Source: Escherichia coli
GTDB lineage: Bacteria; Pseudomonadota; Gammaproteobacteria; Enterobacterales; Enterobacteriaceae
DNA: 45,349 bases
Assembly: GCF_003334405.1 (NCBI RefSeq)
Contig: NZ_QOWM01000023.1
Direction: 5' to 3' (one strand)
Positions within the stretch are counted from its first letter, which is position 1, and the number at the start of each line of letters is the position of its first letter. This document shows positions 5,880-28,552 of the stretch, in pieces. Made by a program: the position numbers and the translations under genes. The notes beneath the pieces are model-generated. The model was not told the DNA's origin, searched no databases, and saw nothing but the letters and a program-made list of their open reading frames with translations.

Positions 5880-5983
5880 TTTACATCCCGGTAATGCAAC
5901 AAAAGTTAGAGCTTTTAAACGCTGCTACTATACGCGCGCGATTGAGGTTTGGGAATGAGGGCAAGTTAAGGGAGCGTAAAAAT

Positions 5984-6013
5984 TTATGGGCCTGGAGCGG
6001 CCCATAATTTTTT
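5984..6013. terminator. Bidirectional intrinsic-terminator-like hairpin between ybgE and ybgC
   Basis: TTATGGGCCTGGAGCGGCCCATAA palindrome flanked by an A-run on one side and a T-run on the other. It is placed to terminate the cydAB-cydX-ybgE transcript on the minus strand. Confidence 0.45.
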
Positions 6014-6028
6014 AAAGAGAATTCTGAT

Positions 6029-6322
6029 TTAAAAGAAGAAGAAAATCAGCCCGACAATGAGAACAATATCGGCAAGCAATGGGCAAAAAATCCCTTGCCA
6101 AAGAACCTTCTGCGGACGAAAGCCCACGCCGTGAATCACACCAGCACAGACGGCCCACATCAGCAATAAACCATGCCAGATTTCCAGTTCACTGGTCTTC
6201 GCGGCAAAACGAGATGGGTCCCAAAACATACATCCTGCTAACAGAAGCGCCATCACGAAGGAAAGCGCCCGCAGGGGGCGCTTGTCCATTACCGCATACA
6301 AAGTCGCGATAATCTTACTCAT
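6029..6322 (-). CDS. ybgE: Small inner-membrane protein YbgE (cyd operon)
   Basis: 97 aa, hydrophobic, MSKIIATLYAVMDKRPLRALSFVMALLLAGCMFW. Confidence 0.9.
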   Translation of the reverse strand: MSKIIATLYAVMDKRPLRALSFVMALLLAGCMFWDPSRFAAKTSELEIWHGLLLMWAVCAGVIHGVGFRPQKVLWQGIFCPLLADIVLIVGLIFFFF

Positions 6323-6435
6323 CAGATGTCTTCTTGACCGGCTTTGCCTGATTCGACGTGTTCAAGCGCCAGCGCGGTGATTACCCCAAACGAACAGGCA
6401 AGAAGCGTTCCCAGAATCCATGCGAAATACCACAT
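6322..6435 (-). CDS. cydX: Cytochrome bd-I oxidase accessory subunit CydX (37 aa)
   Basis: Hand translation of the minus strand gives MWYFAWILGTLLACSFGVITALALEHVESGKAGQEDI followed by TGA. Absent from the ORF track because it is under 60 aa. Its stop overlaps the ybgE start, and it starts 11 bp after the cydB stop. Confidence 0.9.
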   Translation of the reverse strand: MWYFAWILGTLLACSFGVITALALEHVESGKAGQEDI

Positions 6436-6449
6436 TTTTAGCTCCTTAC

Positions 6450-7589: not shown

Positions 7590-7604
7590 TTGACGACTCC
7601 TGTC

Positions 7605-9173
7605 TTAGCGTGCCGGCTGAGTAGTCGTGGAAGACTGCTCAAAGTGATAGCGACCGGTTTTCAGGCTGCTTGGGCCGAGGCGTGCAAACTTGAACATTAA
7701 GAACAATTCTGCCACCAGGAACAGGGTATACAGGCCGCAAATCAGCACCATTGAGAAGATGAGATCGCCTGCGGTCAGTGACGAGTTCGCCACAGCTGTC
7801 GGCAGCACTTCACCGATAGCCCACGGTTGGCGGCCATATTCAGCCACGAACCAGCCCGCTTCTACAGCAATCCACGGCAGCGGAATACCGTACAGCGCGG
7901 CGCGCAGAAGCCATTTTTTCTCGCCAATGCGGTTGCGGATGACACTCCAGAAAGAGAGCGCGATGATTGCCAGAAGCAGGAAGCCACACGCCACCATGAT
8001 ACGGAACGCAAAGTACAGCGGCGCTACACGCGGGATGGAGTCTTTGGTTGCCTGTTGAATCTGCGCTTCAGTCGCATCAGCCACGTTTGGCGTATAGCGT
8101 TTCAGCAGCAGACCGTAACCGAGGTCTTTCTTCATGCTATTGAACTGGTCACGAACCGCCTGGTCGGTAGAACCAGAACGCAGTTGTTCGAGCAGAGAGT
8201 ACGCCTTCATCCCGTTACGAATGCGTTCTTCATGCTGCACCATCAGCTCTTTCAGGCCGATAACCGGGGTATCCACGGAACGCGTTGCAATGATGCCCAG
8301 TGCGTAAGGGATCTGAATCGCAAATTTGTTCGTCTCCTCTTCCTGATCAGGAATGCCGAACAGAGTAAAGGCAGCAGGCGCAGGTTGCGTTTCCCACTCG
8401 GCTTCAATAGCAGCCAGTTTGGTTTTCTGCACGTCGCCCATTTCGTAGCCGGATTCATCACCCAGAACAATAACAGACAGAACAGCAGCCATACCGAAGC
8501 TGGCAGCGATAGCAAAGGAGCGTTTAGCGAAGGCGAAGTCACGACCTTTCAGCATATACCATGCGCTGATACCGAGGATGAACATCGCGCCAGTCACATA
8601 ACCAGACGCTACAGTGTGAACGAATTTCACCTGAGCAACCGGGTTAAGCACCAGCTCGGAGAAGCTCACCATCTCCATACGCATAGTTTCAAAGTTGAAA
8701 TCGGACGCGATTGGGTTTTGCATCCAGCCGTTCGCAACCAGAATCCACAGTGCGGACAGGTTTGAACCGAGCGCCACCAGCCAGGTGACACACATATGCT
8801 GAACTTTACCCAGACGATCCCAACCGAAGAAGAACAGACCTACAAAGGTGGATTCGAGGAAGAAGGCCATCAGACCTTCGATTGCCAGCGGCGCACCGAA
8901 GATATCCCCTACATAGTGGGAATAGTAAGACCAGTTAGTCCCGAACTGGAACTCCATGGTCAGACCGGTAGCCACACCCAGAGCGAAGTTGATACCAAAC
9001 AACTTGCCCCAGAACTTGGTCATATCTTTATAAATCTGTTTGCCGGAGAGGACGTAGACCGTTTCCATAATGGCCAGCAGGAACGCCATACCGAGCGTCA
9101 GTGGCACAAAAAGGAAGTGGTACATCGCGGTCAAGGCAAACTGTAAGCGCGACAGTTCGACTATATCTAACAT
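7605..9173 (-). CDS. cydA: Cytochrome bd-I ubiquinol oxidase subunit I
   Basis: 522 aa from [31 protein letters not shown], including the Q-loop. The ORF-track start at 9176 is one Met upstream. Confidence 0.96.
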
Positions 9174-9455
9174 CATGACTCCTTGCTCATCGCATGAAGA
9201 CTCCGAGAGTGAACCCCGTTAGAAAGGGTCACACGCATGCCCCAATAGAAATTTGTTTGAACACTTTCATCATACCATGTGAATGCACACAAAAACGGCG
9301 TAAAGAAAGGTTGCAAACATGTTAATAAAAACTCAAATTGATCCCACGTATATATTACGCCGCAAAATCCTTACAATAAACAGGTTTTTGTTGAAGCAAA
9401 TTTGCATTTTTCGACGGTGATCAATTTATAGCTAAATCACCGCCTTTCAGCCAAT

Positions 9456-9521
9456 TTGATCGAGAACAATTTATCTCTTTTTGATGCCCATTTCCAAGGC
9501 TTATACATTGATAAATATCAA
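9456..9521. promoter_or_regulatory. cydAB upstream control region with FNR-type palindromes
   Basis: TTGATAAATATCAA (9508-9521) matches the FNR consensus TTGAT-N4-ATCAA exactly. A second near-site, TTGATCGAGAACAA, lies at 9456-9469. Both are about 280-350 bp upstream of the cydA start in an AT-rich 846-bp leader. Confidence 0.45.
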
Positions 9522-10019
9522 TTCCTACAAATTATGTTAATCATGTTTCAATAAGGTAACTTTAGTGACATTTATGTTTAAAATGTGTGAGTTATAAGGC
9601 TGAAATTAGTTTCGGTTGGCAATTAAAGATAAAAAGAGACGAAGCAAAAACAGCACGGTTGACCTTAATTCTTTTTTTGGTCACTGGCTAATACGACGCA
9701 GAGTTTCAGGATTACTAATAAAGGCATAAATCCACCCCGCCAATATTAACATTTAGTTAACTTATAATTATATTATAATTAACTCACCCAGGGTTATTAT
9801 TTTGTTAAAAATAAAGCCACATATACGTGGCTTGAGAGTGAAGATAAACGCAAAATTACCTGATGCGCTACGCTTGCCAGTGTCTACATCATCTCTGCAA
9901 TATATTGAATTTGCCTGCTTTTGTAGACCGAATAAAGCGTTCATGCCGTATCCGGCATGAACAAAGCGCCCTTTGTCAACAATCTGGCCGCGCATATGTG
10001 GCTTCGGTTTGATTGCTAT

Positions 10020-12653
10020 TCAGGCAAGCCGGTAACTGAACGTCCGTGACTGGCCGGGTAAAAAAGGCCCCGATAGATTTGAACCTTGATTTTCCTCGGT
10101 GGTAATGTGTTCATCCATCATCGTTTCTGAGCAAGAAATCACCTCGCGACTGAAAGCAACAGTCGCATCACAGGTTGCTGATTCAGCCGGATTAAACAGC
10201 CGTAAAATCACTTCTTGTCGGTCTTCAGCTTTCTTAAGTGCGCTTATCAGGCATCCCACTGGGGGCATTTTCAACAAACTATAACTTTCCGGCACGTTGA
10301 ATCCGGCTTTGTTGAGCTTCATCACATCCCATGGGATTTTGTTGTAACACTGTACTGGAGTCAGCCATGCTCGCGCCTGCTGAGCTACACCAGCGGCGGT
10401 TGGCGTACCGGTATAACTCAATAAACTTAGGCGACAAGAAAGCAGACCACGTAGTTGTGAGTCCGGGACTGGCATTTTAATTCCCGAAGGCCGCCCAGGC
10501 CTTAAAAGCAGATCTTCTTTGCCCAGTAAGCCCACGCCACGCAGCAACGTAATGGCAAAGGTTTTCTTCTCTTCACCGATGACTTCAAATTCACGTAACC
10601 CTTCGCTAAAGACAGCCATGCCGTTACGCCCTTCCTGTAAGGCAACATAGTTGAGCATATTCCATACCGGAACCGGCGCTTCTTTCCAGCCTTCTTGCTG
10701 CCAGTTGTTCATTGCACTGTCGTTCACGGGGCGCGTTAGCGAACCAAACTGCGTATCTGCCAGAACACTGTCGGTGTTAAAAGGTGTAGGGACCAGGACA
10801 CGAAGGCGATGATCGTCAGCCTGGTTATCAAGATTGATATCCACATCAATACGCCTGCTGTTATGACTAAGAGTGACAACCAACACCACCCCTACTCTGC
10901 CAGTGGATTGCCGGGCGCTGCGTTCTGACAAATTGAGCGGCACTGCCATGTCATAGCGGATAACAGCCCTGCTCTGCCAGGCTTCATGAATAATATCGCA
11001 TTGCGGTTTCGCGTTCGCTGCGGTAATTACCCACTCTTCTTTTGCGGGTGAATAGTCATATTCATCACCATCATCAGAGCTTTCTTCAATTTGCAATACC
11101 CGGTCATAGCGCACACCGCTGTCTTTATCTACCAGTTGCAGAGAACCATCCTCATTGAGCGCAATTTGCCAGAAAGCATTTTCCAGTATCCCTTCAGCGT
11201 CACTTTTTGCCGCAATTACGTTGCCAGGCTGATTCGCTTCGATATAAAGCGTGCGATAGCCCATAGAAGGGACAATCTGGTTGATCTGTATATCAAACTC
11301 CATAAAGGGATCATAATTACCGTAATGAACTATTTGCCGATCGATTAGGCCTGGATCGATCTCACGGGCATGGCGAATAAAATACGGTACAGGCTGACCG
11401 CGATCGTCCCGCAAATTAAACTGGCTGGCGCGCAGCCGCACAGTGGTGTTGATAACTTCTTCACGCGGCCAGGGCATCAGGTTAAACAGGACGAGTTTGT
11501 CGGCGTCGCTCTGCGGCATGTTGTCGGCAATTTTGCGCATGTAGAAACGAATCAGATTATCCGCCATGTCTTCAGCCAGTTCGAAGCGGGCGACGATTTC
11601 GCGATGAACTTTGTCACTACAGCAGCAGCCGATACTGTCGTGGGCATGATTTTTTAAGATCTCTTTCCACATTTTCTCCAGCAAGCCGTGGTGGTATTCA
11701 AAACCCAACGTCCAGGCCAGTGTTGCCAGCGGTTCCAGCAGATTAACAATCTTATTTTCAATACGCGCGTGGGCAATTTTGATATCCATACGCGTAGAAC
11801 CGATGGTGCGATGCACGCGCATATATTTGCCATCAATAAATTCCCCTTTCAGGGTTGCCAGATTATCTCGCTGCGCTTCGATCTTCTCAAATACCTCTTC
11901 AAAGCGGCTCATCACAAACTTACGTTGAGGGTAGATCTCACGTAGCTTATCCATCACTTCGAAGATATTTTGCTGCAATGGCATCTGGTCATGCCCATTC
12001 GGCAGCAAAATCTCTTTGGTTACAGACGCTTTTTCCAGCACGTCAAAATAACTGTCGAGGCGTTTACGTAATCCGTTTTCGTCGGCAGGTAAGTACTTAC
12101 CGATGGCGTAGCCCAGCGGCAGCACCTGCGCCGTCACTTCGCTACCGTCACTGCTTTGCCACAAAAACTCGGTTTTATCAGTACCGTGGCGCTCCGAACA
12201 TCCGCGCCAGAACATGGTGCGGGTAATGCCAAATCCATTGTAGATATGCGGCAGTTGCCCGGACATGCCAAAGGAATCTGGTAAATAACCTATTTTCATC
12301 GGCTCGCCAAACGCGAGGCAGTCACGCATTCCGTACATCAGATTACGGACGATGGATTCCGCAGAAACAATCGTGGTATCGGTCTGGGTATACCAGGGGC
12401 CGATAATCAACTTGCCGGCTTCTACCTGTTTCTTCACACGGTCTTTGTTTTCCGGTTTCACCGCGAAATAATCTTCGAGGATCGCCGTTTGCCCGTCGAG
12501 TACGTAATATTTGTATTCGTTGTCCTGTTCCAGTCGGCACAGGATCTCTTCCATATTATTGACCAGCAGAATACGTGACTCTTCGGTGGTGAAATACCAC
12601 TCTCGATCCCAGTGCATATGCGGGGTGATGTGAACGCGAGATACTGCTTTCAT
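10020..12653 (-). CDS. mngB: Mannosylglycerate hydrolase (GH38 alpha-mannosidase)
   Basis: 877 aa, [30 protein letters not shown] (GH38 N-terminal motif); immediately downstream of mngA. Confidence 0.93.
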
Positions 12654-12670
12654 CGTCGTTTCCTTTTTGT

Positions 12671-14647
12671 TTATGGCATTACGCCATCAGTCAGATAGTT
12701 GCCATGCTTAACCGCGTGACGCCGCCACATCAGGAGAATTGCAGTCGAGATTGCAGCCCCCACCAATGCCGCGCCAAACCAGCCAATTGCCGCCATAACA
12801 CCGCCCGCGCCATTATCATGAAGTAAAAAGAGCGAGAAAATGCCGGCACCGGGTGTCGAAAGGCCGATATTCATCGCACCGACAATAGCGCCCGTTACCA
12901 TAGAGCCCAGCACAAACGAACCAATAACCCGCAGCGGATCTTCAATCGCCATCGGGATCGCCCCTTCGGTAATACCTGCCAGCCCTAACAGCCAGGTGGA
13001 TTTCCCGGTCTCAATTTCAAACTCTTTAAACAGGCGCGGTGCGAGCATCGTGGAAGCGGTTACGGTAAATGCCGAAACCATTTTGACGGAGGCGAAAATG
13101 GCATACGGGCCGTAAACGCCGTTCGCCATTGCGCCCAGGCAGAATGCATAAGCGGCTTTATTCACTGGCCCTCCAAGGTCAAAGGAACACATAAAACCGA
13201 GAATGGCACCCAGCAACAGCGCGTTACTTCCTGACAGACCGTTCAGCCAGGCGGTAAGCGAGTTATTGATCCAGGCGACAGGTTCCCCCACCACAAACAG
13301 CATCAGACTGCCCGCTCCCAACGTACCGAGCACCGGGTAGAGATAAAAAGTCAGGAATCCATTGAATTTACTGCTAAGACGCAAGTGATTTTTCACCCAG
13401 CGCATCAAGTAACCGGCTATCAATCCGCCAACGACCGCGCCGAGAAACCCGGAGCCGATCATGTTGGCGGCAAGTCCAGCCGCAAAGCCTGGCGCTAACG
13501 CCGGTTTATCTGCCAGAGAATAGGCGGTATAGGCCGCGAGCACCGGTACCATCAAAATTCCGAGCAGCCCGCCGCCCAGCTTGCGGTACATCCACAGCCA
13601 GGAGTTTTCTTCATTAAACAGATCTTGTAGCCCGAAGATTTGCGACAGTAATACCGCGACCGCCAGCACCGTGCCCCCCGCGACAATCAACGGTACGGCA
13701 AAAGAGATTCCGCTCAACAGTGCCTGTTTCAGCTCCGTTTTGACACTTTTCACCGGTTGCGTATCTTGCTGTACGGTACGCGTCTCATCGCTACGCTTGA
13801 GGGTAAGCGCTTGTTGGATCAACGCTTCTGCATGGCGAATCGGCTCGGCAACAGGCACTGAAAGCGCGGGAATGCCATTAAAACGCTCACTCTCCTTGAT
13901 GGCGACTTCAGCCGCAAAAATACAGGCGGTTGCACTATTGAGTTGATCCGCCGTTAAACGCCCTTCAATGCCGTTAGCGCCTTGTTTTTCAACGTAAACA
14001 TTTACGCCGAGTTTGCGTCCGGCTTTTTCCAGATATTCCGCAGCCATATAGGTGTGAGCAATACCCGCCGGACAGGCCGTTACGCAGACGATAGTTGGCG
14101 CGTTGGAAAAAGAGGCAGAAGGTTGCGTGCCTCCCTTGTCATCCAGCGCCGAGAGCAACTCATCAGGCGTCGTCGCCGACTGTATACGCGCCCGAATCTC
14201 ATCATCCGCAAGGCGCGTGGTCAGCGCTGTCAGCAGTTGCATATGCGTAGTACCCGCTTCATTGGGGGGAATCGCCAGCAGCACCACTAAATCAACTGCT
14301 TCCGGGCCATCAACGCCTTCCCACTGAAGCGGCTCGCTGAGTGTGGCGACCGCAAACGCCGCTTCTTTTACCGCAGCAGTTTTGCCATGCGGCACAGCCA
14401 ACCCTTCACCTAAGGCGGTCGGGCCAAGGCTTTCACGGCGATACACTTCTTCCAGAAATTGCTCAGTACTGGAAATTTTCCCCAGAGCAGCAAGACGTTG
14501 AGTCAACGCGTGGATGGCCTCTTCACGGCTGGTAAAGCGCGCATTCAGACACAACGCATCGCGGTGGGTCAGAGTCGTCAGATTCATCATGATCCTCACT
14601 TGATCGTTTTTATAGTCGCGCCAGTGTGCCCGATAAAACAATACCAT
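12671..14647 (-). CDS. mngA: PTS 2-O-alpha-mannosyl-D-glycerate-specific EIIABC component
   Basis: 658 aa with PTS EIIA(Fru)-like, EIIB and polytopic EIIC regions; fits the mngR/mngA/mngB context. Confidence 0.92.
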
Positions 14648-14755
14648 TATGTGATCAATTTCACTTGATTGAAATTATTTGTATTGTATTTGTATTATTT
14701 ACAGGATGAATTTATCGGGCATGATGGTTAAATTCGTATTAATGAGATACTAAAA
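14648..14755. promoter_or_regulatory. Divergent mngA / mngR promoter-operator region
   Basis: 108-bp AT-rich intergenic region containing the inverted repeat AATTTCA-N6-TGAAATT (14657-14676) and tandem TGTATT repeats (14681-14697). A candidate MngR (GntR/HutC-family) operator, by inference. Confidence 0.35.
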
Positions 14756-15478
14756 ATGGGACACAAGCCCTTATACCGGCAGATTGCCGATCGCATTCGT
14801 GAACAAATTGCGCGTGGCGAGCTTAAACCTGGCGATGCGTTACCCACTGAATCAGCGCTACAAACAGAGTTTGGCGTCAGCCGGGTTACGGTGCGTCAGG
14901 CTTTGCGCCAGCTAGTCGAGCAGCAGATCCTCGAAAGCATTCAGGGCAGCGGGACTTACGTCAAAGAAGAGCGGGTCAATTACGATATTTTTCAGTTAAC
15001 CAGTTTTGATGAAAAACTGTCGGACCGTCACGTCGATACACACAGTGAAGTTCTGATATTCGAAGTGATTCCGGCTGACGATTTTCTTCAGCAACAGCTA
15101 CAAATCACCCCGCAGGATCGTGTGTGGCATGTGAAGCGCGTGCGCTATCGCAAGCAAAAGCCAATGGCGCTGGAAGAAACCTGGATGCCGCTTGCGTTGT
15201 TCCCGGATCTCACCTGGCAGGTCATGGAAAATTCGAAATATCACTTTATCGAAGAAGTGAAGAAAATGGTTATCGATCGTAGCGAACAGGAAATCATTCC
15301 TCTGATGCCAACCGAAGAGATGAGCCGTCTGCTTAATATCAGCCAGACAAAGCCGATTCTTGAAAAAGTATCGCGTGGATATTTAGTTGATGGTCGGGTG
15401 TTTGAATATAGCCGCAACGCTTTTAATACCGATGACTATAAATTTACCCTGATAGCGCAGCGAAAATCATCGCGATAA
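14756..15478 (+). CDS. mngR: GntR/HutC-family transcriptional repressor MngR (FarR)
   Basis: 240 aa, N-terminal GntR-type HTH (ALPTESALQTEFGVSRVTVRQALRQLVEQQILESIQGSGTYV) and UTRA-type C-terminal domain. Confidence 0.93.
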   Translation: MGHKPLYRQIADRIREQIARGELKPGDALPTESALQTEFGVSRVTVRQALRQLVEQQILESIQGSGTYVKEERVNYDIFQLTSFDEKLSDRHVDTHSEVLIFEVIPADDFLQQQLQITPQDRVWHVKRVRYRKQKPMALEETWMPLALFPDLTWQVMENSKYHFIEEVKKMVIDRSEQEIIPLMPTEEMSRLLNISQTKPILEKVSRGYLVDGRVFEYSRNAFNTDDYKFTLIAQRKSSR

Positions 15479-15484
15479 GCACAA

Positions 15485-15581
15485 AAAAGGCCATCATACG
15501 ATGGCCAACCATGTCGAAACCGACAGCCCTTCGCCATTCCTGTAGAGGGAAGCGGCGAGGGCTATTTCTTATTACAGATAT
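15485..15581 (-). ncRNA. sdhX: SdhX (RybD) sRNA from the sucD 3' UTR
   Basis: The sequence directly 3' of the sucD stop ends in the intrinsic terminator GGCCAUCGUAUGAUGGCC followed by UUUUUU (15483-15510, minus strand). Position and terminator fit the known 3'-UTR-derived sRNA of the sdh-suc transcript. The 5' boundary is set by processing and not determinable here. Confidence 0.6.
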
Positions 15582-16451
15582 TTATTTCAGAACAGTTTTC
15601 AGTGCTTCACCGATATCCGCCAGGCTGCGAACGGTTTTCACGCCTGCGGCTTCCAGAGCAGCGAATTTCTCATCCGCAGTCCCTTTCCCACCGGCAATGA
15701 TGGCACCCGCGTGGCCCATACGTTTGCCTTTCGGCGCAGTCACACCAGCGATGTAACCCACAACTGGCTTGGTAACGTGCTCTTTGATGTACGCAGCTGC
15801 TTCTTCTTCAGCGCTACCGCCGATCTCACCGATCATCACGATCGCTTCGGTCTGCGGATCTTTTTCGAACATTTCGAGAATGTCGATAAAGTTAGAGCCC
15901 GGGATCGGGTCACCGCCGATACCGACACAGGTCGACTGACCGAAACCGTAATCCGTGGTCTGTTTAACCGCTTCATAGGTCAGTGTACCGGAACGGGAAA
16001 CGATACCCACTTTACCCGGTTTGTGAATGTGACCAGGCTGGATACCGATTTTGCATTCACCCGGAGTGATAACGCCTGGGCAGTTCGGGCCGATCATACG
16101 AACGCCTGCTTCATCCAGCTTCACTTTCACGGTCAGCATATCCAGCGTCGGGATGCCTTCAGTGATGGTGATAATCAGTTTGATGCCTGCGTCGATGGCT
16201 TCCAGAATGGAGTCTTTGCAGAACGGTGCTGGTACGTAGATAACAGAAGCGGTAGCGCCAGTGGCAGCAACGGCTTCACGCACGGTGTTGAACACCGGCA
16301 GGCCGAGGTGGGTGGTGCCGCCTTTACCTGGGGTTACGCCGCCAACCATTTTAGTGCCGTATGCAATGGCCTGTTCTGAGTGGAAAGTCCCCTGGCTACC
16401 GGTAAAGCCCTGGCAGATAACCTTGGTGTTTTTATCGATTAAAATGGACAT
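15582..16451 (-). CDS. sucD: Succinyl-CoA synthetase alpha subunit
   Basis: 289 aa, [45 protein letters not shown]. Confidence 0.97.
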
Positions 16452-17617
16452 TATTTCCCCTCCACTGCGGCAACAACCTGCTGAGCTGCATCCGTCAGAC
16501 CTTTTGCTGCAATAATATTCAGGCCGCTGTCAGCCAGTTTCTTCGCGCCGAGTTCGGCGTTGTTACCTTCCAGACGTACCACGACCGGTACGTTAACACC
16601 CACTTCTGCTACCGCGCCGATGATACCGTCAGCGATCAGGTCGCAACGAACGATACCGCCGAAGATGTTAACCAGAACGGCTTTCACTTTGTCGTCAGAG
16701 AGGATGATTTTGAACGCTTCGGTTACACGTTCTTTGGTTGCGCCGCCGCCAACGTCAAGGAAGTTAGCCGGTTCGCCGCCGTGCAGTTTAACGATGTCCA
16801 TCGTACCCATCGCCAGACCTGCGCCGTTAACCATACAACCGATGTTACCGTCCAGCGCAACGTAGTTCAGTTCCCACTGTGCAGCCTGTGCTTCACGCGG
16901 ATCTTCCTGCGACTGGTCACGCATTTCGCGCAGATCAGGCTGGCGGAACAGTGCGTTGCCGTCAGCGCCCAGTTTGCCGTCGAGGCAAATCAGATCGCCC
17001 TGTTTGGTGATGACCAGCGGGTTGATTTCGATCAACGCCAGGTCGCGCTCCAGGAAAATGGTCGCCAGGCCCATGAAGATTTTGGTGAACTGCTGAACCA
17101 GTTTACCTTCCAGACCCAGTTTGAACGCCAGCTCGCGTCCCTGATACGGCATCGGGCCAGTCAGCGGATCAAGCGCAACTTTATGGATCAGGTGCGGAGT
17201 TTCTTCCGCCACTTTTTCGATTTCCACGCCGCCTTCGGTGGAGGCCATAAAGACCACACGACGGGAACTACGGTCAACAACGGCACCGAGATACAGCTCT
17301 TTAGCGATATCGGTCGCTGCTTCAACCAGAATCTGGTTAACCGGTTGGCCATTGGCATCTGTTTGATACGTTACCAGACGCTTGCCCAGCCAGTTTTCTG
17401 CAAAAGCACGGATGTCTTCTTTGCTGTTTACAACTTTCACACCGCCCGCTTTACCGCGGCCACCAGCGTGAACCTGACATTTCACTACCCACGGACCGGC
17501 ACCGATTTTTGAAGCGGCTTCTTCTGCTTCGCGCGGAGTAGTACAGGCATAACCCACCGGTGCTGGTAAGCCATAGCGGGCAAAAAGTTGTTTTGCCTGA
17601 TATTCATGTAAGTTCAT
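16451..17617 (-). CDS. sucC: Succinyl-CoA synthetase beta subunit
   Basis: 388 aa, [39 protein letters not shown] (ATP-grasp); overlaps the sucD start by 1 nt. Confidence 0.97.
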
Positions 17618-17699
17618 GTGTTCTGTCCATCCTTCAGTAATCGTTATCTTTTAAACCGTAGACCGAATATTTCGTATCGCTTCCGGGCATTGTCGGTCA

Positions 17700-17960
17700 C
17701 CCGTAGGCCTGATAAGACACGTTAAACGTCACATCAGGCATCGCTTGTCGGATGCGGCGCTTGCGCCTTATCCGACCTACATTGGTGGTCCCCGTAGGCC
17801 TGATAAGACACGTTAACCGTCACATCAGGCATCGCTTGTCGGATGCGGCGCTAGCGCCTTATCCGACCTACATTGGTGGTCCCGTAGGCCTGATAAGACG
17901 CGTCAGCGTCGCATCAGGCTTCAATTGCCGGAGAAGGCGATAATGCCTTATCCGGTCTAC
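17700..17960. repeat. Tandem array of three ~90-bp BIME/REP units in the sucB-sucC intergenic region
   Basis: Units at 17700-17790 and 17791-17880 are near-identical (two substitutions and one indel by eye). A third, more diverged unit lies at 17881-17960. Each unit holds two REP-type palindromes (GCCTGATAAGAC...GTCACATCAGGC and GTCGGATGCGGCGC..GCGCCTTATCCGAC). Confidence 0.85.
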
Positions 17961-17982
17961 AGTGCAGGTGAAACTTAAACTA

Positions 17983-19200
17983 CTACACGTCCAGCAGCAG
18001 ACGCGTCGGATCTTCCAGCAACTCTTTGATCGTTACCAGGAAGCCCACGGATTCGCGACCATCGATCAGACGGTGATCGTAGGACAGCGCCAGGTACATC
18101 ATCGGCAGGATCTCAACCTGACCATTCACCGCCATCGGACGATCTTTGATAGCGTGCATACCCAGAATTGCGCTCTGCGGCGGGTTGATGATCGGCGTAG
18201 ACATCAGGGAACCGAACACACCACCGTTGGTGATGGTGAAGTTACCACCGGTCAGATCTTCAACGGTCAGCTTGCCGTCACGGCCTTTGACTGCCAGCTC
18301 TTTGATTTTCTTCTCGATGTCTGCCATGCCGAGGGTATCGACATCACGCAGAACCGGCGTCACCAGGCCGCGCGGCGTAGAAACCGCCATGCTGACGTCG
18401 AAATAGTTGTGGTAAACCACGTCATCGCCGTCGATAGAAGCGTTCACTTCCGGGTAACGTTTCAGGGCTTCAACCACCGCTTTCACGTAGAAGGACATAA
18501 AGCCCAGACGGATGCCGTGGCGTTTTTCAAACGCTTCACCGTACTGCTTACGCAGATCCATAATCGGCTTCATGTTGACTTCGTTGAACGTGGTCAGCAT
18601 GGCGGTGGAGTTTTTCGCTTCCAGCAGACGCTCTGCCACACGCTTACGCAGGCGAGTCATCGGGACACGTTTTTCACTACGTGCAGCCAGAGCCGGTTGC
18701 GCCGCCGGAGCAGCCGCTGCCGGAGCAGACTCTTTCGCCGGGGCTTTCGCCAGATGTTTTTCCACATCTTCACGAGTCAGACGACCACCCACACCGGTGC
18801 CTTTAATGGCGCTGGCGTCGAGATTGTGTTCAGCCAGCAGGCGACGGATCGCCGGGCTTAACGCATCGTTGTTTTGCTCTTCCAGAGACGCCTGCTGGCG
18901 TTGCGCCGGAGTGGACGCTTTCTCTTCAGATTTGGCGCTGGTTTCTTTACCGGCGCTGTTGCCTTCACGCAGGCGACCAAGGATCTGACGAGACGTTACC
19001 GTTGTACCTTCATCTTCCAGAACCGCATCCAGAATGCCGTCTGCTGATGCCGGTACTTCCAGTACCACTTTGTCAGTTTCGATTTCTACCAGCACTTCAT
19101 CACGTACGACTGCGTCGCCGGGTTTTTTATGCCAGGTTGCGACGGTGGCATCGGCTACGGATTCAGGCAGGTCAGGGACCAGAATATCTACGCTACTCAT
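17983..19200 (-). CDS. sucB: 2-oxoglutarate dehydrogenase E2 (dihydrolipoyllysine succinyltransferase)
   Basis: 405 aa, [49 protein letters not shown] (lipoyl domain), Ala/Pro linker, catalytic domain. Confidence 0.97.
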
Positions 19201-19214
19201 TGTGTATCCTTTAT

Positions 19215-22016
19215 TTATTCGACGTTCAGCGCGTCATTAACCAGATCTTGTTGCTGTTTCTGGTGAACGGACATATACCCTACCGCCGGAGAGGCGGAGG
19301 CCGGGCGGCCTGCATAACGCAGAGAAGCCCCAAACGGAATCACTTCACGGAAATGATGCTGGCTGCAGTACCATGCGCCCTGGTTGAGCGGCTCTTCCTG
19401 GCACCAGACAAAATCCTTGACGTGAGCAAACTGCTGCAACACTTCCTGCATCGCTTTATGCGGGAACGGGTAGAGTTGCTCGATACGCACAATGGCGACA
19501 TCGTGTTGATTGTTCTTACGACGCTGTTCCAGCAGGTCGTAATAAACCTTACCAGAACACATCACTACGCGCTTCACGCCCTTCGGATCAAGCTCGTCGA
19601 TTTCACCGATGGCTGGCAGGAAGGTGCCGTTCGCCAGTTCTTCGAGGCTGGAAACCGCCAGCGGATGACGCAGCAGGGATTTCGGCGACATCACGACCAG
19701 CGGACGACGCATCCCGCGCAGCGCCTGACGACGCAGCATGTGGTAAACCTGTGCCGGGGTAGACGGTACGCAAACCTGCATGTTTTGCTCAGCACAAAGT
19801 TGCAGATAACGTTCCAGACGCGCGGAGGAGTGCTCCGGCCCCTGCCCTTCGTAACCGTGCGGCAGCAACATCACCAGACCACACATCCGGCCCCATTTCT
19901 GTTCGCCAGAGGAGATGAACTGGTCGATAACCACCTGCGCACCGTTGGCGAAGTCACCGAACTGCGCTTCCCAGATGGTCAGAGTGCGTGGTTCTGCGGT
20001 GGCATAACCATATTCAAACGCCAGCACTGCTTCTTCAGACAGTACGGAGTCCCAGACACGGAACGCGCCCTGCCCGTTATGGATATGTTGCAGCGGCGTG
20101 TAAGTGGAACCGTTAGACTGGTTGTGGATCACCGCGTGGCGGTGGAAGAAGGTACCGCGACCGGAGTCTTCACCCGACAGGCGAACCGGAATGCCTTCAT
20201 CAACCAGCGTGGCGTAAGCGAGGTTTTCCGCACCGCCCCAGTCGAACAGTTTCTCACCGGCAGCCATCGCCTGGCGATCGCCATAAATCTTGGCAACGCG
20301 AGACTGCATTTCAACTGCTTCCGGCACCGTGCTGATGCGTTTCGCCAGCTCCTGCAGGCGCTTCATCTCAACTTTGTTCGGGTACTCTTCGTCCCATTCG
20401 TGGTTGAGGTACGGCGACCAGGTGAAAGAGTGCATGTTCATCGGACGCCACTCTGCCACTACGCAATCGCCAGCATCCAGCGCATCGCGGTACAGGTTAA
20501 CCATCTCGGTGGCATCTTCCAGCGTCGCCACTTTTTCCTGCTCCAGCTTGTCAGCGTAGATTTTGCGCGGTGTCGGATGTTTTTTGATTTTCTGATACAT
20601 CAGCGGCTGGGTTGCGCTCGGCTCGTCGGCTTCGTTGTGGCCGTGACGGCGGTAGCACACCAGGTCGATGAAGACATCACGTTTAAAGGTGTTACGGAAA
20701 TCGAGCGCCAGACGGGTCACAAAGGCAACGGCTTCCGGATCGTCCGCGTTAACGTGGAAAATCGGGGCCTGAACCATCTTACCGATATCAGTACAGTACG
20801 GCGTAGAACGGGCATCCAGCGGATTAGAGGTGGTGAAACCAACCTGGTTGTTGATAACGATACGTACCGTACCGCCAACTTCATAACCACGCGCTTTCGA
20901 CATGTTCAGGGTTTCCTGAACCACGCCCTGCCCGGTCACTGCGGCGTCACCGTGGATGGTGATTGGCAGCACTTTGTTGCTGCTCGGCTCATCAAGTCTG
21001 TCCAGACGGGCACGAACAGAACCGATAACTACCGGGCTTACAATCTCAAGGTGAGACGGGTTAAACGCCAGCGCCAGGTGCACCAGGCCGCCATCGGTCT
21101 GGAAGTCAGACGAGAAGCCCATGTGGTATTTCACGTCACCCGTGCCGAGGTGTTCTTTATGTTTACCGGCGAACTCGTCGAACAAGTCTTGCGGTTTTTT
21201 ACCCAGCACGTTCACCAGCACGTTCAGACGACCACGGTGCGCCATCCCGAGAACCACTTCGCGGGTGCCGCTGTTGCCAGCGTGGCGGATCATCTCTTTA
21301 AGCATCGGGATTAACGCGTCACCGCCTTCCAGCGAGAAGCGTTTTGCGCCAGGGAATTTTGCGCCGAGGTAACGTTCAAGACCTTCAGCGGCGGTCAGTT
21401 CGCTTAAGAAGCGTTTTTTCTCTTCGCTATTGAAAGTCGCGCGACCAGACTCGATACGCTGTTGGATCCAGCGTTTTTCTTCGGTGCTGGTAATGTGCAT
21501 ATACTCGGCACCAATCGGGCCGCAGTAGGTTTGCTTGAGGGCTTCCAGCAGCTCGCCGAGTTTCATGGTTTCTTTGCCGCTGGCAAATGAACCGACGTTG
21601 AAGGTCTCCTGGAAGTCTGCTTCGGTCAGATCGTGGAAAGACGGATCCAGATCGGCCACTTTATCTTGCTGCCACAGTCCCAGCGGATCGAGATTCGCAT
21701 GCTGGTGACCACGGAAGCGGTATGCGTTAATGAGCTGCAGGACTTTAACCTGCTTCACATTGGTGTCAGGGTCGGAGATCGTTGAAGAGTAACGTGAAGC
21801 GTCTTTCGCCAGGCGGCGGAAATATTCACGCGTTTGAGAGTGGAATTGATCCGGTTTGACTCCCGTACCAGGTAACTGCTGGAACGTCGAACGCCAGTTA
21901 GCGTCAACCGAGTCAGGATCGGTTAAGAAGTCTTCATAGAGCTGTTCTATCCAGCTCTGGTTTGCGCCAGAGAGGTAAGAAGAGTCCAACCAGGCTTTCA
22001 AAGCGCTGTTCTGCAT
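19215..22016 (-). CDS. sucA: 2-oxoglutarate dehydrogenase E1 component
   Basis: 933 aa, [38 protein letters not shown]. Confidence 0.97.
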
Positions 22017-22195
22017 CGTGATCCCTTAAGCATCTTTTTTATGCTTACTTCGCCGTGGATACTACCACGCACAGTGATGTGCGTGCCGGGGTTCACTTGC
22101 GAGCTCTTGTCTACGTAGTGGCTCGCGAAGGAACCTTTAAAAACTGTCTTAGTGTCAGGGGCAGTTTTTAAAGATTTCCTGCATTTCTTTGTTAC

Positions 22196-22316
22196 GCCTG
22201 ATGCGCTGCGCTTATCAGGCCTACGGGTAATGACTTGTAGGCCGGATAAGGCGTTCACGCCGCATCCGGCACTGGTTGCCTGATGCGACGCTTGCGCGTC
22301 TTATCAGGCCTACGGT
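22196..22316. repeat. REP (BIME) palindromic units in the sdhB-sucA intergenic region
   Basis: Three REP-type palindromes: GCCTGATGCGCTGCGCTTATCAGGCCTAC, GTAGGCCGGATAAGGCGTTCACGCCGCATCCGGC, GCCTGATGCGACGCTTGCGCGTCTTATCAGGCCTAC. They abut the sdhB stop codon. Confidence 0.85.
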
Positions 22317-23033
22317 TTACGCATTACGTTGCAACAACATCGACTTGATATGGCCGATGGCGCGCGTCGGGTTCAGCCCCTTCGGACATACACTGACGCA
22401 GTTCATGATGCTGTGACAGCGGAATACGCTGAATGCATCACTCAAACCGTCGAGGCGGCTGTCAGTCTCGGTATCACGGCTATCAATCAGGAAACGATAT
22501 GCCGCTAACAAGCCTGCCGGGCCGATAAACTTATCGGGATTCCACCAGAAAGACGGACAAGAGGTTGAACAACATGCGCAGAGAATACATTCATACAGCC
22601 CGTCGAGTTTTTCGCGCTGCTCTGGCATCTGTAAATGCTCGCGAGCTGGCGGATTTTGTCCATTATTCAACAGGTAAGGCTTAATTTTCTCATATTGCGC
22701 ATAGAATTGTCCCATGTCTACCACCAAATCGCGGATCACCGGTAAACCTGGCAGCGGGCGAATCACAATCTTCTTGCCCGGCTGGTTGAGTGCCGAAATC
22801 GGGGTAATACAGGCCAGACCATTCTTGCCGTTCATGTTCAGACCGTCGGAACCGCACACACCTTCACGGCAGGAGCGGCGGAACGACAGGCTGGGATCTT
22901 TCTCTTTTAGCTGGATAAGCGCATCCAGCAGCATCATGTCGCGACCTTCATCCGCTTCCAGGGTGTAATCCTGCATACGCGGAGCATCATCAACATCCGG
23001 GTTATAGCGATAAATTGAAAACTCGAGTCTCAT
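22317..23033 (-). CDS. sdhB: Succinate dehydrogenase iron-sulfur subunit
   Basis: 238 aa, MRLEFSIYRYNPDVDDAPRMQDYTLEADEGRDMMLLDALIQLKEKDPSLSFRRSCREGVCGSDG (2Fe-2S), plus 4Fe-4S Cys clusters. Confidence 0.97.
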   Translation of the reverse strand: MRLEFSIYRYNPDVDDAPRMQDYTLEADEGRDMMLLDALIQLKEKDPSLSFRRSCREGVCGSDGLNMNGKNGLACITPISALNQPGKKIVIRPLPGLPVIRDLVVDMGQFYAQYEKIKPYLLNNGQNPPAREHLQMPEQREKLDGLYECILCACCSTSCPSFWWNPDKFIGPAGLLAAYRFLIDSRDTETDSRLDGLSDAFSVFRCHSIMNCVSVCPKGLNPTRAIGHIKSMLLQRNA

Positions 23034-23048
23034 TTTCCTGTCTCCGCA

Positions 23049-24815
23049 TTAGTAAGTACGAATCTTCGGCGGGAATGCCGGGCGCAGTTTCGGTTCCATG
23101 TTGACGCTTCGGCGCGTCATGGATTCCGACTCTGGCAGATACAGGGAGTGGCACAGCCAGTTTTCATCATCACGATCCGGGAAGTCGAAGCGGCTATGCG
23201 CGCCACGGCTTTCGGTACGGAAGTTGGCAGAAACAGCCGTTGCATACGCCGTTTCCATCAGGTTATCCAGTTCCAGGCACTCAACGCGCTGGGTGTTGAA
23301 CTCGCTGGAAGTGTCATCCAGACGGGCATTTTTCAGACGCTCGCGGATCACTTTCAACTGCTCAAGCCCTTTCGCCATCGCATCACCTTCACGGAAGACC
23401 GAGAAGTTATGCTGCATACATTCTTGCAGCGCTTTACGGATCGCCACCGGATCTTCACCGTTACGATTATTGTTCCAGCGGTTCAGGCGATCCAGAGACG
23501 CTTCAACATCAGACTCGCTGGCATCGCGCAGTGCGCCCTGCTCGGCGATAGACTCTTGCAGATGCAGACCTGCCGCGCGACCAAAGACCACCAGGTCCAG
23601 CAGCGAGTTGCCGCCCAGACGGTTAGCGCCGTGTACCGATACACAAGCGATTTCACCAACGGCAAACAGTCCCGGAACAACCACATCTTCGCCTTTCTCA
23701 TTCACAGTCAGCGCCTGACCGGTAACTTTGGTCGGAATACCGCCCATCATGTAGTGACAGGTTGGGATAACCGGAATCGGCTCTTTCACCGGATCGACGT
23801 GAGCGAAGGTACGGGAAAGCTCCAGGATACCCGGCAGACGGGATTCGAGAACTTCTTTACCCAGGTGATCGAGTTTCAGTTTCGCGTGTGGCCCCCACGG
23901 ACCATCACAGCCGCGACCTTCACGGATTTCGATCATGATGGAACGCGCAACCACGTCACGGCCCGCCAGGTCTTTGGCGTTCGGCGCATAACGCTCCATA
24001 AAACGTTCGCCATGTTTGTTCAGCAGATAACCGCCTTCACCACGGCAACCTTCGGTGACCAGTACGCCCGCACCGGCAATGCCGGTCGGGTGGAACTGCC
24101 ACATTTCCATATCCTGCACCGGTACGCCGGCACGGATAGCCATGCCGACACCGTCGCCGGTGTTAATGTGGGCGTTGGTGGTGGACTGATAAATACGCCC
24201 TGCTCCGCCAGTCGCCAGCACGGTAGCGCGGGCTTTGAAATAAACCACTTCACCGGTTTCGATGCACAGTGCGGTACAACCCACCACCGCGCCATCCTGG
24301 TTTTTCACCAGATCCAGCGCATACCACTCGGAGAAAATGGTGGTGTGGTTTTTCAGGTTCTGCTGATAAAGCGTGTGCAACAGTGCGTGACCGGTACGGT
24401 CAGCTGCTGCCGCAGTGCGTGCCGCCTGCTCGCCGCCGAAGTTTTTCGACTGACCGCCAAACGGACGTTGATAGATACGACCATCATCGAGACGCGAGAA
24501 CGGCAGGCCCATGTGTTCGAGTTCCAGAATCGCTTCCGGCCCGGTTTTACACATATATTCAATCGCGTCCTGGTCACCGATATAGTCCGACCCTTTCACG
24601 GTGTCGTACATATGCCATTCCCAGTTATCTTCATGGGTATTACCCAGCGCAACGGTAATGCCGCCTTGCGCAGAAACGGTATGGGAACGGGTCGGGAAGA
24701 CTTTAGAGAGCAGCGCACAGGTCTGGCCGCTCTGGGAAATTTGCAGCGCCGCGCGCATACCTGCGCCACCGGCACCAATCACAACTGCATCAAATTCTCT
24801 GACTGGCAATTTCAT
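23049..24815 (-). CDS. sdhA: Succinate dehydrogenase flavoprotein subunit
   Basis: 588 aa from [25 protein letters not shown] (FAD-binding GxGxxG). The ORF-track start at 24827 is 4 codons upstream. Start overlaps the sdhD stop by 1 nt. Confidence 0.97.
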
Positions 24816-25162
24816 CACACACCCCACACCACAACGAATCCATAAATCACGTAAACCACCAGTGCAACGACAATCACCAGTTGCAGCATCAGGCGCAAAG
24901 CCAGCGGTTTAACGTAGTCGGTCAACACCTGCCACATGCCGATCCAGGCATGGATCAAGATAGAAAACAGCGCCAGCAGGGTGAACACTTTGGTGAACGC
25001 AGAGGCGAAGAAACCGATCCAGACTTCATATGTCAGCTCGCCACTGGTAGCGAAAAAACCGACCATATAAATGATGTAGAGCGTCAGGACGATAGCGGTA
25101 GCGCGAACGAGGATGAAATCATGTACGCCATTGCGTCCTAATGCGGAGGCGTTGCTTACCAT
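24815..25162 (-). CDS. sdhD: Succinate dehydrogenase membrane anchor subunit
   Basis: 115 aa hydrophobic protein, [37 protein letters not shown]. Confidence 0.95.
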
Positions 25163-25545
25163 ACGAGGACTCCTGCGAGAAGTGAAAGCACGACAGTAAT
25201 AACAAAGGAGATTTTGGCGGAGCGTTTACCCGCTTCGAATGTTTCTTCCAGATAGCCAAAATCCATCATCATGTGGCGAATACCTACGACGACGTGATAC
25301 GCCAGAGCGGTAAGGATGCCCCACATGATAAATTTGACGAAGAAGCTGCCCATAATCGCGGAAGCTTGCTCGAAACCTTCAGGGGAAGAGAGGCTGGTAC
25401 CCAGAAGCCACAGCAGGATGCCCACTGCAACAAAGGTGATCACACCGGAAACGCGATGGAGAATGGACGCTATCGCCGTGATGGGGAACCGGATGGTCTG
25501 TAGGTCCAGATTAACAGGTCTTTGTTTTTTCACATTTCTTATCAT
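25156..25545 (-). CDS. sdhC: Succinate dehydrogenase cytochrome b556 subunit
   Basis: 129 aa from [35 protein letters not shown]. The ORF track extends to 25560 from an upstream Met; overlaps sdhD by 7 nt. Confidence 0.93.
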
Positions 25546-26253
25546 GAATAACGCCCACATGCTGTTCTTATTATTCCCTGGGGACTACGGGCACAGAGGT
25601 TAACTTTCTGTTACCTGGAGACGTCGGGATTTCCTTCCTCCGGTCTGCTTGCGGGTCAGACAGCGTCCTTTCTATAACTGCGCGTCATGCAAAACACTGC
25701 TTCCAGATGCGAAAACGACACGTTACAACGCTGGGTGGCTCGGGATTGCAGGGTGTTCCGGAGACCTGGCGGCAGTATAGGCTGTTCACAAAATCATTAC
25801 AATTAACCTACATATAGTTTGTCGGGTTTTATCCTGAACAGTGATCCAGGTCACGATAACAACATTTATTTAATTTTTAATCATCTAATTTGACAATCAT
25901 TCAACAAAGTTGTTACAAACATTACCAGGAAAAGCATATAATGCGTAAAAGTTATGAAGTCGGTATTTCACCTAAGATTAACTTATGTAACAGTGTGGAA
26001 GTATTGACCAATTCATTCGGGACAGTTATTAGTGGTAGACAAGTTTAATAATTCGGATTGCTAAGTACTTGATTCGCCATTTATTCGTCATCAATGGATC
26101 CTTTACCTGCAAGCGCCCAGAGCTCTGTACCCAGGTTTTCCCCTCTTTCACAGAGCGGCGAGCCAAATAAAAAACGGGTAAAGCCAGGTTGATGTGCGAA
26201 GGCAAATTTAAGTTCCGGCAGTCTTACGCAATAAGGCGCTAAGGAGACCTTAA
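25546..26253. promoter_or_regulatory. Divergent gltA / sdhCDAB promoter region
   Basis: 708-bp non-coding, AT-rich region between divergent gltA and sdhC. Known from K-12 to carry the promoters and ArcA/CRP/Fur-type control of both operons; individual sites not resolved here. Confidence 0.6.
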
Positions 26254-27537
26254 ATGGCTGATACAAAAGCAAAACTCACCCTCAACGGGGATACAGCTGT
26301 TGAACTGGATGTGCTGAAAGGCACGCTGGGTCAAGATGTTATTGATATCCGTACTCTCGGTTCAAAAGGTGTGTTCACCTTTGACCCAGGCTTCACTTCA
26401 ACCGCATCCTGCGAATCTAAAATTACTTTTATTGATGGTGATGAAGGTATTTTGCTGCACCGCGGTTTCCCGATCGATCAGCTGGCGACCGATTCTAACT
26501 ACCTGGAAGTTTGTTACATCCTGCTGAATGGTGAAAAACCGACTCAGGAACAGTATGACGAATTTAAAACTACGGTGACCCGTCATACCATGATCCACGA
26601 GCAGATTACCCGTCTGTTCCATGCTTTCCGTCGCGACTCGCATCCAATGGCAGTCATGTGTGGTATTACCGGCGCGCTGGCGGCGTTCTATCACGACTCG
26701 CTGGATGTTAACAATCCTCGTCACCGTGAAATTGCCGCGTTCCGCCTGCTGTCGAAAATGCCGACCATGGCCGCGATGTGTTACAAGTATTCCATTGGTC
26801 AGCCATTTGTTTACCCGCGCAACGATCTCTCCTACGCCGGTAACTTCCTGAATATGATGTTCTCCACGCCGTGCGAACCGTATGAAGTTAATCCGATTCT
26901 GGAACGTGCTATGGACCGTATTCTGATCCTGCACGCTGACCATGAACAGAACGCCTCTACCTCCACCGTGCGTACCGCTGGCTCTTCGGGTGCGAACCCG
27001 TTTGCCTGTATCGCAGCAGGTATTGCTTCACTGTGGGGACCTGCGCACGGCGGTGCTAACGAAGCGGCGCTGAAAATGCTGGAAGAAATCAGCTCCGTTA
27101 AACACATTCCGGAATTTGTTCGTCGTGCGAAAGACAAAAATGATTCTTTCCGCCTGATGGGCTTCGGTCACCGCGTGTACAAAAATTACGACCCGCGCGC
27201 CACCGTAATGCGTGAAACCTGCCATGAAGTGCTGAAAGAGCTGGGCACGAAGGATGACCTGCTGGAAGTGGCTATGGAGCTGGAAAACATCGCGCTGAAC
27301 GACCCGTACTTTATCGAGAAGAAACTGTACCCGAACGTCGATTTCTACTCTGGTATCATCCTGAAAGCGATGGGTATTCCGTCTTCCATGTTCACCGTCA
27401 TTTTCGCAATGGCACGTACCGTTGGCTGGATCGCCCACTGGAGCGAAATGCACAGTGACGGTATGAAGATTGCCCGTCCGCGTCAGCTGTATACAGGATA
27501 TGAAAAACGCGACTTTAAAAGCGATATCAAGCGTTAA
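26254..27537 (+). CDS. gltA: Citrate synthase (type II)
   Basis: 427 aa, [78 protein letters not shown]. Confidence 0.97.
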
Positions 27538-27565
27538 TGGTTGATTGCTAAGTTGTAAATATTTT

Positions 27566-27598
27566 AACCCGCCGTTCATATGGCGGGTTGATTTTTAT
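27566..27598 (+). terminator. Rho-independent terminator of gltA
   Basis: AACCCGCCGTTCATATGGCGGGTT hairpin followed by a T-run, 29 bp after the gltA stop. Confidence 0.7.
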
Positions 27599-27926
27599 AT
27601 GCCTAAACACAAAAAATTGTAAAAATAAAATCCATTAACAGACCTATATAGATATTTAAAAAGAATAGAACAGCTCAAATTATCAGCAACCCAATACTTT
27701 CAATTAAAAACTTCATGGTAGTCGCATTTATAACCCTATGAAAATGACGTCTATCTATACCCCCCTATATTTTATTCATCATACAACAAATTCATGATAC
27801 CAATACTTTAGTTTTGCATTTAATAAAACTAACAATATTTTTAAGCAAAACTAAAAACTAGCAATAATCAAATACGATATTCTGGCGTAGCTATACCCCT
27901 ATTCTATATCCTTAAAGGACTCTGTT

Positions 27927-28493
27927 ATGTTTAAAGGACAAAAAACATTGGCCGCACTGGCCGTATCTCTGCTGTTCACTGCACCTGTTTATGCTGCTGA
28001 TGAAGGTTCTGGCGAAATTCACTTTAAGGGGGAGGTTATTGAAGCACCTTGTGAAATTCATCCAGAAGATATTGATAAAAACATAGATCTTGGACAAGTC
28101 ACGACAACCCATATAAACCGGGAGCATCATAGCAATAAAGTGGCCGTCGACATTCGCTTGATCAACTGTGATCTGCCTGCTTCTGACAACGGTAGCGGAA
28201 TGCCGGTATCCAAAGTTGGCGTAACCTTCGATAGCACGGCTAAGACAACTGGTGCTACGCCTTTGTTGAGCAACACCAGTGCAGGCGAAGCAACTGGGGT
28301 CGGTGTACGACTGATGGACAAAAATGACGGTAACATCGTATTAGGTTCAGCCGCGCCAGATCTTGACCTGGATGCAAGCTCATCAGAACAGACGCTGAAC
28401 TTTTTCGCCTGGATGGAACAAATTGATAATGCAGTCGATGTCACGGCAGGTGAAGTAACCGCTAACGCAACCTACGTGCTGGATTATAAATAA
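27927..28493 (+). CDS. ybgD: Fimbrial major subunit-like protein YbgD
   Basis: 188 aa with signal peptide MFKGQKTLAALAVSLLFTAPVYA, a Cys pair and C-terminal beta-strand motif typical of chaperone-usher pilins. First gene of the cluster, downstream of a 389-bp AT-rich region. Confidence 0.9.
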   Translation: MFKGQKTLAALAVSLLFTAPVYAADEGSGEIHFKGEVIEAPCEIHPEDIDKNIDLGQVTTTHINREHHSNKVAVDIRLINCDLPASDNGSGMPVSKVGVTFDSTAKTTGATPLLSNTSAGEATGVGVRLMDKNDGNIVLGSAAPDLDLDASSSEQTLNFFAWMEQIDNAVDVTAGEVTANATYVLDYK

Positions 28494-28552
28494 GTATTAT
28501 TTTGGCGGCATCATCGCCGCCTTTCATAAAATATTTATCAGGTATGGACACC

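Follow-up and report, generated by a model that had tools for sequence, protein, structure and literature searches.

Bacterial interspersed mosaic elements of type 2 (BIME-2) are defined in the Gilson/Bachellier classification, together with the types of REP palindrome of which they are made (PMC3333891, PMC1187871). They hold y and z2 REPs in alternating orientation with short linkers, in multiple tandem pairs that are extragenic and dispersed around the chromosome. The number of their copies at the same locus differs among strains (PMC3333891; PMC1187871), and strain-to-strain length polymorphism of BIME-2 has been on record since 1997, as relayed in PMC1187871 and PMC3333891. In E. coli K-12 one such array lies between sucB and sucC, which are co-transcribed in a long operon mRNA that is known to be processed (PMC6393394). 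This K-12 array is a binding and cleavage site for DNA gyrase (PMC6379681), and a REP decay intermediate derived from it builds up in rhlB pcnB mutants (PMC4372235). The most closely studied relative, REP325 in yjdMN, acts as a partly Rho-dependent attenuator and as a stabiliser of upstream mRNA, and yields a ladder of truncated, hairpin-ended transcripts (bioRxiv 10.64898/2026.03.23.713779); the same 2026 preprint contests the HU binding and nucleoid role of its RNA, naRNA4. The element considered here, its locus and the length polymorphism of BIME-2 are all already described in the literature, so that our analysis carries little weight as discovery. One point of practical use is that the K-12 reference most likely holds a derived, shortened allele, whereas three units are present in E. 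coli B and in E. coli C, as well as in roughly 1,000 other sequenced strains.

The window is the whole 45,349-nt stretch of E. coli DNA that was analysed; it carries the sdh-suc genes on its minus strand. The sucB-sucC spacer occupies 17618..17982 and is 365 bp long, as the sequence-only reading of this DNA had stated. The sucB product ends in ...LLLDV, followed by TAG; two consecutive in-frame TAG stops (17980-17985, minus strand) close the gene. The array is wholly extragenic, between the sucB stop and the sucC start. The features of the locus are as follows, the genes and the sucC leader first and then the array in the direction of transcription.

16451..17617, minus strand: sucC, open reading frame; downstream gene, in the same operon as sucB
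17983..19200, minus strand: sucB (odhB), open reading frame and annotation of matching records; upstream gene
17618..17657, minus strand: invariant sucC leader GGTTTAAAAGATAACGATTACTGAAGGATGGACAGAACAC with the Shine-Dalgarno sequence, from invariant alignment columns
17927..17960, minus strand: REP a, y-like, GTAGACCGGATAAGGCATTATCGCCTTCTCCGGC, first of the array (parse; hairpin -16.4 kcal/mol)
17884..17919, minus strand: REP b, z2-type, inverted, ending in CTAC (parse; hairpin -21.4 kcal/mol)
17794..17883, minus strand: unit 2, 90 nt, with linker GGGACCACCAAT first (MG1655 alignment and marker parse)
17838-17871, minus strand: y REP of unit 2 (REP c), loop CTAGCG, followed by the 7-nt linker AAGCGAT
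17794-17830, minus strand: z2 REP of unit 2 (REP d), loop GGTTAAC (parse)
17797-17868: RF02564 match of unit 2 (Rfam, 59.5 bits)
17703..17793, minus strand: unit 3, 91 nt, with linker GGGGACCACCAAT first (parse and alignment)
17747-17780, minus strand: y REP of unit 3 (REP e), loop CAAGCG, followed by AAGCGAT
17703-17739, minus strand: z2 REP of unit 3 (REP f), loop GTTTAAC (parse)
17706-17777: RF02564 match of unit 3 (Rfam, 59.8 bits)
17658..17688, minus strand: element g, remnant of a degenerate REP in inverted orientation, GCCCGGAAGCGATACGAAATATTCGGTCTAC (from aligning the 93-bp allele)

Tandem Repeats Finder reported a single array at 17688..17961 with a period of 91, 3.0 copies, 87 % matches and a score of 385, in agreement with the parse and with the earlier description of a tandem BIME/REP array of three units of about 90 bp with two palindromes each. 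Every unit contains one y-type and one z2-type REP, giving six REPs in the array. The y palindromes, beginning with GTAG, alternate with the z2 palindromes, ending in CTAC; the linkers measure 7 nt where two palindromes stand head to head and 12-13 nt where they stand tail to tail. Two mismatches in 91 positions (98 % identity) separate 17700-17790 from 17791-17881, slightly above the 97 % that had been judged by eye; the remaining unit was likewise found to be the more diverged one (75 % identity over 63 nt). This diverged, sucB-proximal unit consists of REP a, whose stem is imperfect and which starts 22 nt past the stop codon of sucB, and REP b, an exact match to the GCCTGATGCGACGC core; a 7-nt linker separates the two. 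The last 85 nt before sucC hold element g and the sucC ribosome-binding site. Element g alone forms only a weak hairpin (-3.4 kcal/mol). In the minimum-free-energy fold the CGGTCTAC at its end and the GTAGACCG with which REP a starts form an outer stem that closes the array.

No promoter was found in a scan of the spacer, and a scan for intrinsic terminators (GC-rich hairpin plus U-run) gave no site in the array; its sole hit was a weak 7-pair stem overlapping the sucB stop, which did not rise above shuffled sequences. A 63-codon open reading frame on the plus strand (17752..17943) was dismissed as spurious, being antisense to the operon and built from the repeat units themselves.

Matches to the core of z2 REPs, GCCTGATGCGACGC, and to that of y REPs, GCCGGATGCGGCG, had no more than two mismatches. 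REP-core patterns occurred 10 and 13 times in the window, compared with 0.46 and 1.9 expected from shuffles. The Rfam model RF02564 (naRNA4), which represents one y hairpin plus one z2 hairpin and was built from the REP325 pair, was spanned in full by all three units, each of them thus containing a y and a z2 REP. On the operon strand unit 3 scored 59.8 bits, unit 2 59.5 bits and the sucB-proximal unit, whose match includes REP a, 56.4 bits. With a gathering threshold of 59.5 bits these matches sit right at the threshold or just below it, and the model essentially picks up any pair of y and z2 REPs; the reverse strand scored 33-50 bits. Compensatory pairs were seen in the y stem when the units were aligned to the model. 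The linker lengths are unlike the long IHF-binding L linker of BIME-1, the y-z2 pair is repeated in tandem (3.0 copies here; 2, 3 or 4 in other genomes), and the array is matched at a median of eight places per E. coli genome, with further copies in the window at about 22.2 and 39.7 kb. On the strength of the y/z2 anatomy, the RF02564 alignment, the core enrichment and the dispersal, the element is the BIME-2 of the sucB-sucC spacer, in the sense defined in PMC3333891 and PMC1187871.

Several other features of the window were recorded in passing. The sdhB-sucA spacer (22196-22310, plus strand) carries a second REP cluster, in which lies the best naRNA4 match of the window (22240-22310, plus strand, 88.4 bits; antisense to the operon). 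A further REP pair at 39663-39768 coincides with a match to the Rfam sRNA ES036 (CssrF; 39692-39734, minus strand, 75.1 bits). At the left end of the window, matches were also obtained to the CpoB/ybgF RNA thermometer (1004-1142, minus strand, 142 bits) and to a tRNA (5-77, minus strand) that is lysT by its position in K-12.

In MG1655 (NC_000913.3) the spacer between the end of sucB (762,739) and the start of sucC (763,014) measures 274 bp and holds two units with four REPs. The sequence-only reading had given this length correctly, and no 365-bp spacer that would have removed the difference was found in MG1655; its coordinates (761,962 and 762,237) did not agree with the current record, from which they differ by a constant offset of 777 that presumably reflects an older numbering. 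Alignment bore out the proposed difference of one unit of about 91 bp: apart from one additional 91-bp period, the window is identical to MG1655 in the spacer and in the 200-nt flanks. Nothing in MG1655 corresponds to the extra period, which is taken here as unit 2, although its exact phase is arbitrary within an identical interval of 27 nt. The one distal unit that MG1655 has is identical to unit 3 apart from GGG in its linker. Over positions 1..42,100 of the window the comparison with MG1655 showed six substitutions, all outside the array (9438, 9499, 11313, 14723, 23712 and 27806), and the 91-bp unit was the only indel; the earlier observation that the other intergenic lengths match K-12 was consistent with this. 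The source strain is extremely close to K-12 across this part of the window. Identity to MG1655 breaks down in 42118-45349, with 26 SNPs clustered at 42118-42736 and, beyond 42750, no match in the compared MG1655 segment (735,000-781,000). The open reading frames there encode two transposases of the ISAs1 family (H-repeat), one protein of the YdcD family and the C-terminal tip of an RHS core protein, which identifies the segment as a variable Rhs region.

The locus was surveyed in 5426 complete E. coli genomes, in all of which the flanks match. The array was scored as present where a 525-nt query was covered to at least 80 %, and allele classes were derived from coverage thresholds together with rank bracketing of evenly spaced samples, so that rare classes (one unit, IS insertions) could be hidden in the counts that follow. 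By this measure the array was present in 2015 genomes. The other 3411 (63 %), including O157:H7, O26, O145, ST131 and CFT073, have a 93-bp spacer and no array. With the MG1655 allele as query, for which three-unit alleles reach only 77 % coverage, 933 genomes (17 %) were assigned to two-unit types with spacers of 274 or 261 bp; the 261-bp spacer of KE41, LF82 and 3-72 has a z2 REP that is 13 nt shorter. Subtraction of these 933 from the 2015 array-bearing genomes leaves about 1082 (20 %) with three or four units. Rank bracketing placed the near-identical three-unit allele in 1016-1108 genomes, among them E. coli C and an E. coli B derivative, whilst the exact K-12 allele accounted for roughly the first 370-460 ranks, where all five genomes sampled look like K-12 laboratory derivatives. 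A synthetic four-unit query identified four units in exactly three genomes (A23, J3 and MB10) and more than four in none of the 5426. The three-unit allele is therefore real but ordinary, a common form that some 20 % of the sequenced strains have. The sucC leader (17618..17657) showed no differences across all the aligned E. coli alleles of the main alignment; in a separate comparison, the allele of O157:H16 98-3133 had one C-to-T change at the last base of the leader.

Three markers distinguish units 2 and 3, namely the linker G-run (3 or 4), a base in the y loop (T or A) and a base in the z2 loop (G or T). In this notation the window reads (GGG, T, G)(GGGG, A, T) and MG1655 reads (GGG, A, T). 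A second two-unit type, found in GF4, 914033 and O157:H16 98-3133, reads (GGG, T, T) and is a hybrid of units 2 and 3. The four-unit allele of A23 reads (GGG, T, G)(GGGG, A, G)(GGGG, A, T), its middle unit being the reciprocal hybrid, and that of MB10 has the same markers with, in addition, GTAG changed to GTTG in both of the y(A) copies. Starting from the three-unit allele, a single in-register unequal exchange suffices to give the allele of K-12, the two-unit allele of GF4 type or a four-unit allele, whereas the three-unit allele is not obtainable from either two-unit allele without new mutations. Units 2 and 3 moreover differ by two substitutions and a 1-nt indel. A duplication that followed the split from K-12 would predict about 0.01 differing sites rather than three, an expectation that is based on the six SNPs in about 42 kb between the window and MG1655 and that assumes uniform mutation rates. 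Taken together, the single-exchange derivations and the excess of differences between units 2 and 3 lead us to conclude that a unit was most likely lost in K-12 rather than recently gained in the window; we put the probability of this reading at roughly 85 %.

The sequence-only reading had instead proposed a recent tandem duplication of one unit, by which the lineage of the window would have gained a copy of a K-12-like distal unit. The adjacency and 98 % identity of units 2 and 3 speak for such a gain, as do the otherwise complete identity of the allele to MG1655 and the presence of two units in E. whittamii. It would, however, need two substitutions and one indel within 91 new bases, whilst none of 674 flanking bases has changed and only six SNPs are found in 42 kb, and duplication of the K-12 unit cannot supply the marker states GGTTAAC (z2 loop) and GGGG (linker), which are absent from the K-12 allele. 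The near-identical three-unit allele is, furthermore, present in about 1000 genomes, and all sampled carriers of the exact K-12 allele look like laboratory strains of K-12, so that a recent gain appears very improbable and the proposal of a recent duplication is not upheld. Short-read assemblers can miscount tandem repeats of about 90 bp, and the third unit might on that ground be taken for an error made in assembling or sequencing repetitive DNA; since numerous independent complete genomes share an identical stretch of 765 bp, with the distinguishing markers of the units in fixed order, this explanation can be practically dismissed. Several observations qualify the reading of a loss in K-12. 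E. whittamii, a close relative, has two units, and a two-unit state may be older still, the three-unit allele having come from an ancient duplication. The hairpin loops of unit 2 look hypervariable (STEC276, B-RalR) and the copies may be diverging faster than the flanks, and gene conversion between units could mimic hybrid units. In a distant clade (APEC37, Santai) the three units are closer to one another than to the units of the window, a pattern indicative either of concerted evolution or of units gained and lost repeatedly. The substitutions of STEC276 and B-RalR lie in or beside the hairpins of unit 2, the loops of which may be mutational hot spots.

As to mechanism, the K-12 allele would have lost one period in a homologous exchange with units 2 and 3 misaligned, or by slippage between these units during replication, and the GF4-type two-unit allele and the four-unit alleles would be products of the same process with other crossover points. 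An alternative is that units are gained and lost through the action of the REP-associated tyrosine transposase TnpA-REP (RAYT), which cuts REPs at their GTAG/CTAC feet. In vitro this enzyme both cleaves BIMEs and recombines them, and it is a proposed driver of BIME-2 copy-number change (PMC3333891; PMC2817692). The K-12 crossover interval, ACCACCAATGTAGGTCGGATAAGGCGC, does contain GTAG, and TnpA-REP is a possible agent of that event. The GF4-type deletion and the A23 duplication, in contrast, have their crossovers in the 35-nt stretch between the y-loop and z2-loop markers, in which no GTAG or CTAC was found, and their products are reciprocal, as unequal exchange or in-register slippage predicts. 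For these two events homology-driven misalignment seems to fit better than transposase cutting at the REP feet, and we regard the transposase as unlikely to be the general cause.

The spacer RNA is predicted to fold with -168 kcal/mol (z = -7.9), and individual REP hairpins with -15 to -21 kcal/mol, so that the sense transcript would carry stable hairpins between two co-transcribed genes, as in REP elements that stabilise mRNA or attenuate transcription. Predicted folding energies for zero, two, three and four units were -41, -126, -175 and -223 kcal/mol, or about -48 kcal/mol for each added unit. Predicted accessibility of the sucC Shine-Dalgarno sequence remained at 0.55-0.57 for zero, two, three and four units in this lineage, irrespective of copy number, and because accessibility of the ribosome-binding site is constant in the model no direct effect of copy number on the initiation of sucC translation is expected. 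At the level of DNA, the array would be a strong site of gyrase binding and cleavage, as reported for the K-12 allele. In the sdhCDAB-sucABCD transcript its hairpins would block 3'-to-5' exonucleases, stabilising the upstream sucAB segment and leaving small REP fragments, and would probably also attenuate in part the read-through into sucCD. With an extra unit, a further barrier to exonucleases would be expected, together with a further pause site and a further gyrase site. That copy number influences the sucAB/sucCD ratio is plausible from the analogy with REP325, and would fit the published work on the K-12 array and on REP325. The stronger proposal, that the number of units (0, 2, 3 or 4) is a heritable dial for the sucAB:sucCD mRNA ratio and/or local gyrase loading, seems to us doubtful. 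If it were true, K-12 with its derived two units would be unrepresentative, as the majority of strains with an array carry three units and the majority of E. coli carry none. Any role of the sucB-sucC BIME-2 in operon expression or chromosome topology must be dispensable and lineage-specific, because 63 % of the E. coli genomes surveyed here have no array. The series of alleles with zero, two, three and four units and identical flanks offers a natural allelic series for effects of REP copy number on neighbouring genes.

The 93-bp allele (for example in FDAARGOS_1280, positions 301-393 of its extracted locus) has a hairpin of GTAGACCG, 15 nt and CGGTCTAC exactly at the site of the array. The two 8-bp arms frame the 15 nt in a hairpin of 12 pairs (-15.7 kcal/mol), and in the array-bearing alleles the same GTAGACCG...CGGTCTAC frame surrounds the whole array. 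Neither form is derivable from the other by a simple indel, as the 15-nt loop is unique to the short allele. Beyond E. coli, a scan of outgroup contigs recovered E. whittamii, Salmonella, Citrobacter and others but neither E. albertii nor E. fergusonii, and was thin within Escherichia, where the locus of Escherichia sp. E1V33 ends 75 bp upstream of sucC; among the genomes recovered, the tandem array was found in Escherichia only. A GTAG...CTAC frame before the conserved GGTTTAAAGATAACGATTAC is kept across Citrobacter, Salmonella, Klebsiella, Raoultella and Enterobacter, holding a short hairpin, one REP or one REP pair. Judged by these sequences, the site looks like an old REP slot with turnover of its content.

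Compared with known systems, the BIME-2 of MG1655 shares with the array of the window its locus, flanks and palindromes, and the 274 bases common to both are identical. MG1655 lacks the added period of the window, which carries two loop substitutions and has a linker one G shorter than that of the neighbouring unit. REP325/naRNA4 (yjdM-yjdN) resembles the array in being a tandem repeat of y and z2 REPs inside an operon, but has six units rather than three, and the y-z2 linker of the window array is 6 nt shorter than that of REP325. Other Enterobacteriaceae and the 93-bp E. coli allele share the frame CACCTGC..GTAG[...]CTAC-GGTTTAAAGATAACGATTAC upstream of sucC. Within this frame C. braakii, C. 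portucalensis, Enterobacter and the 93-bp allele have only a short hairpin, and Salmonella arizonae and diarizonae, C. youngae and Raoultella have one y/z REP pair with no tandem array, whereas the window has the tandem array.
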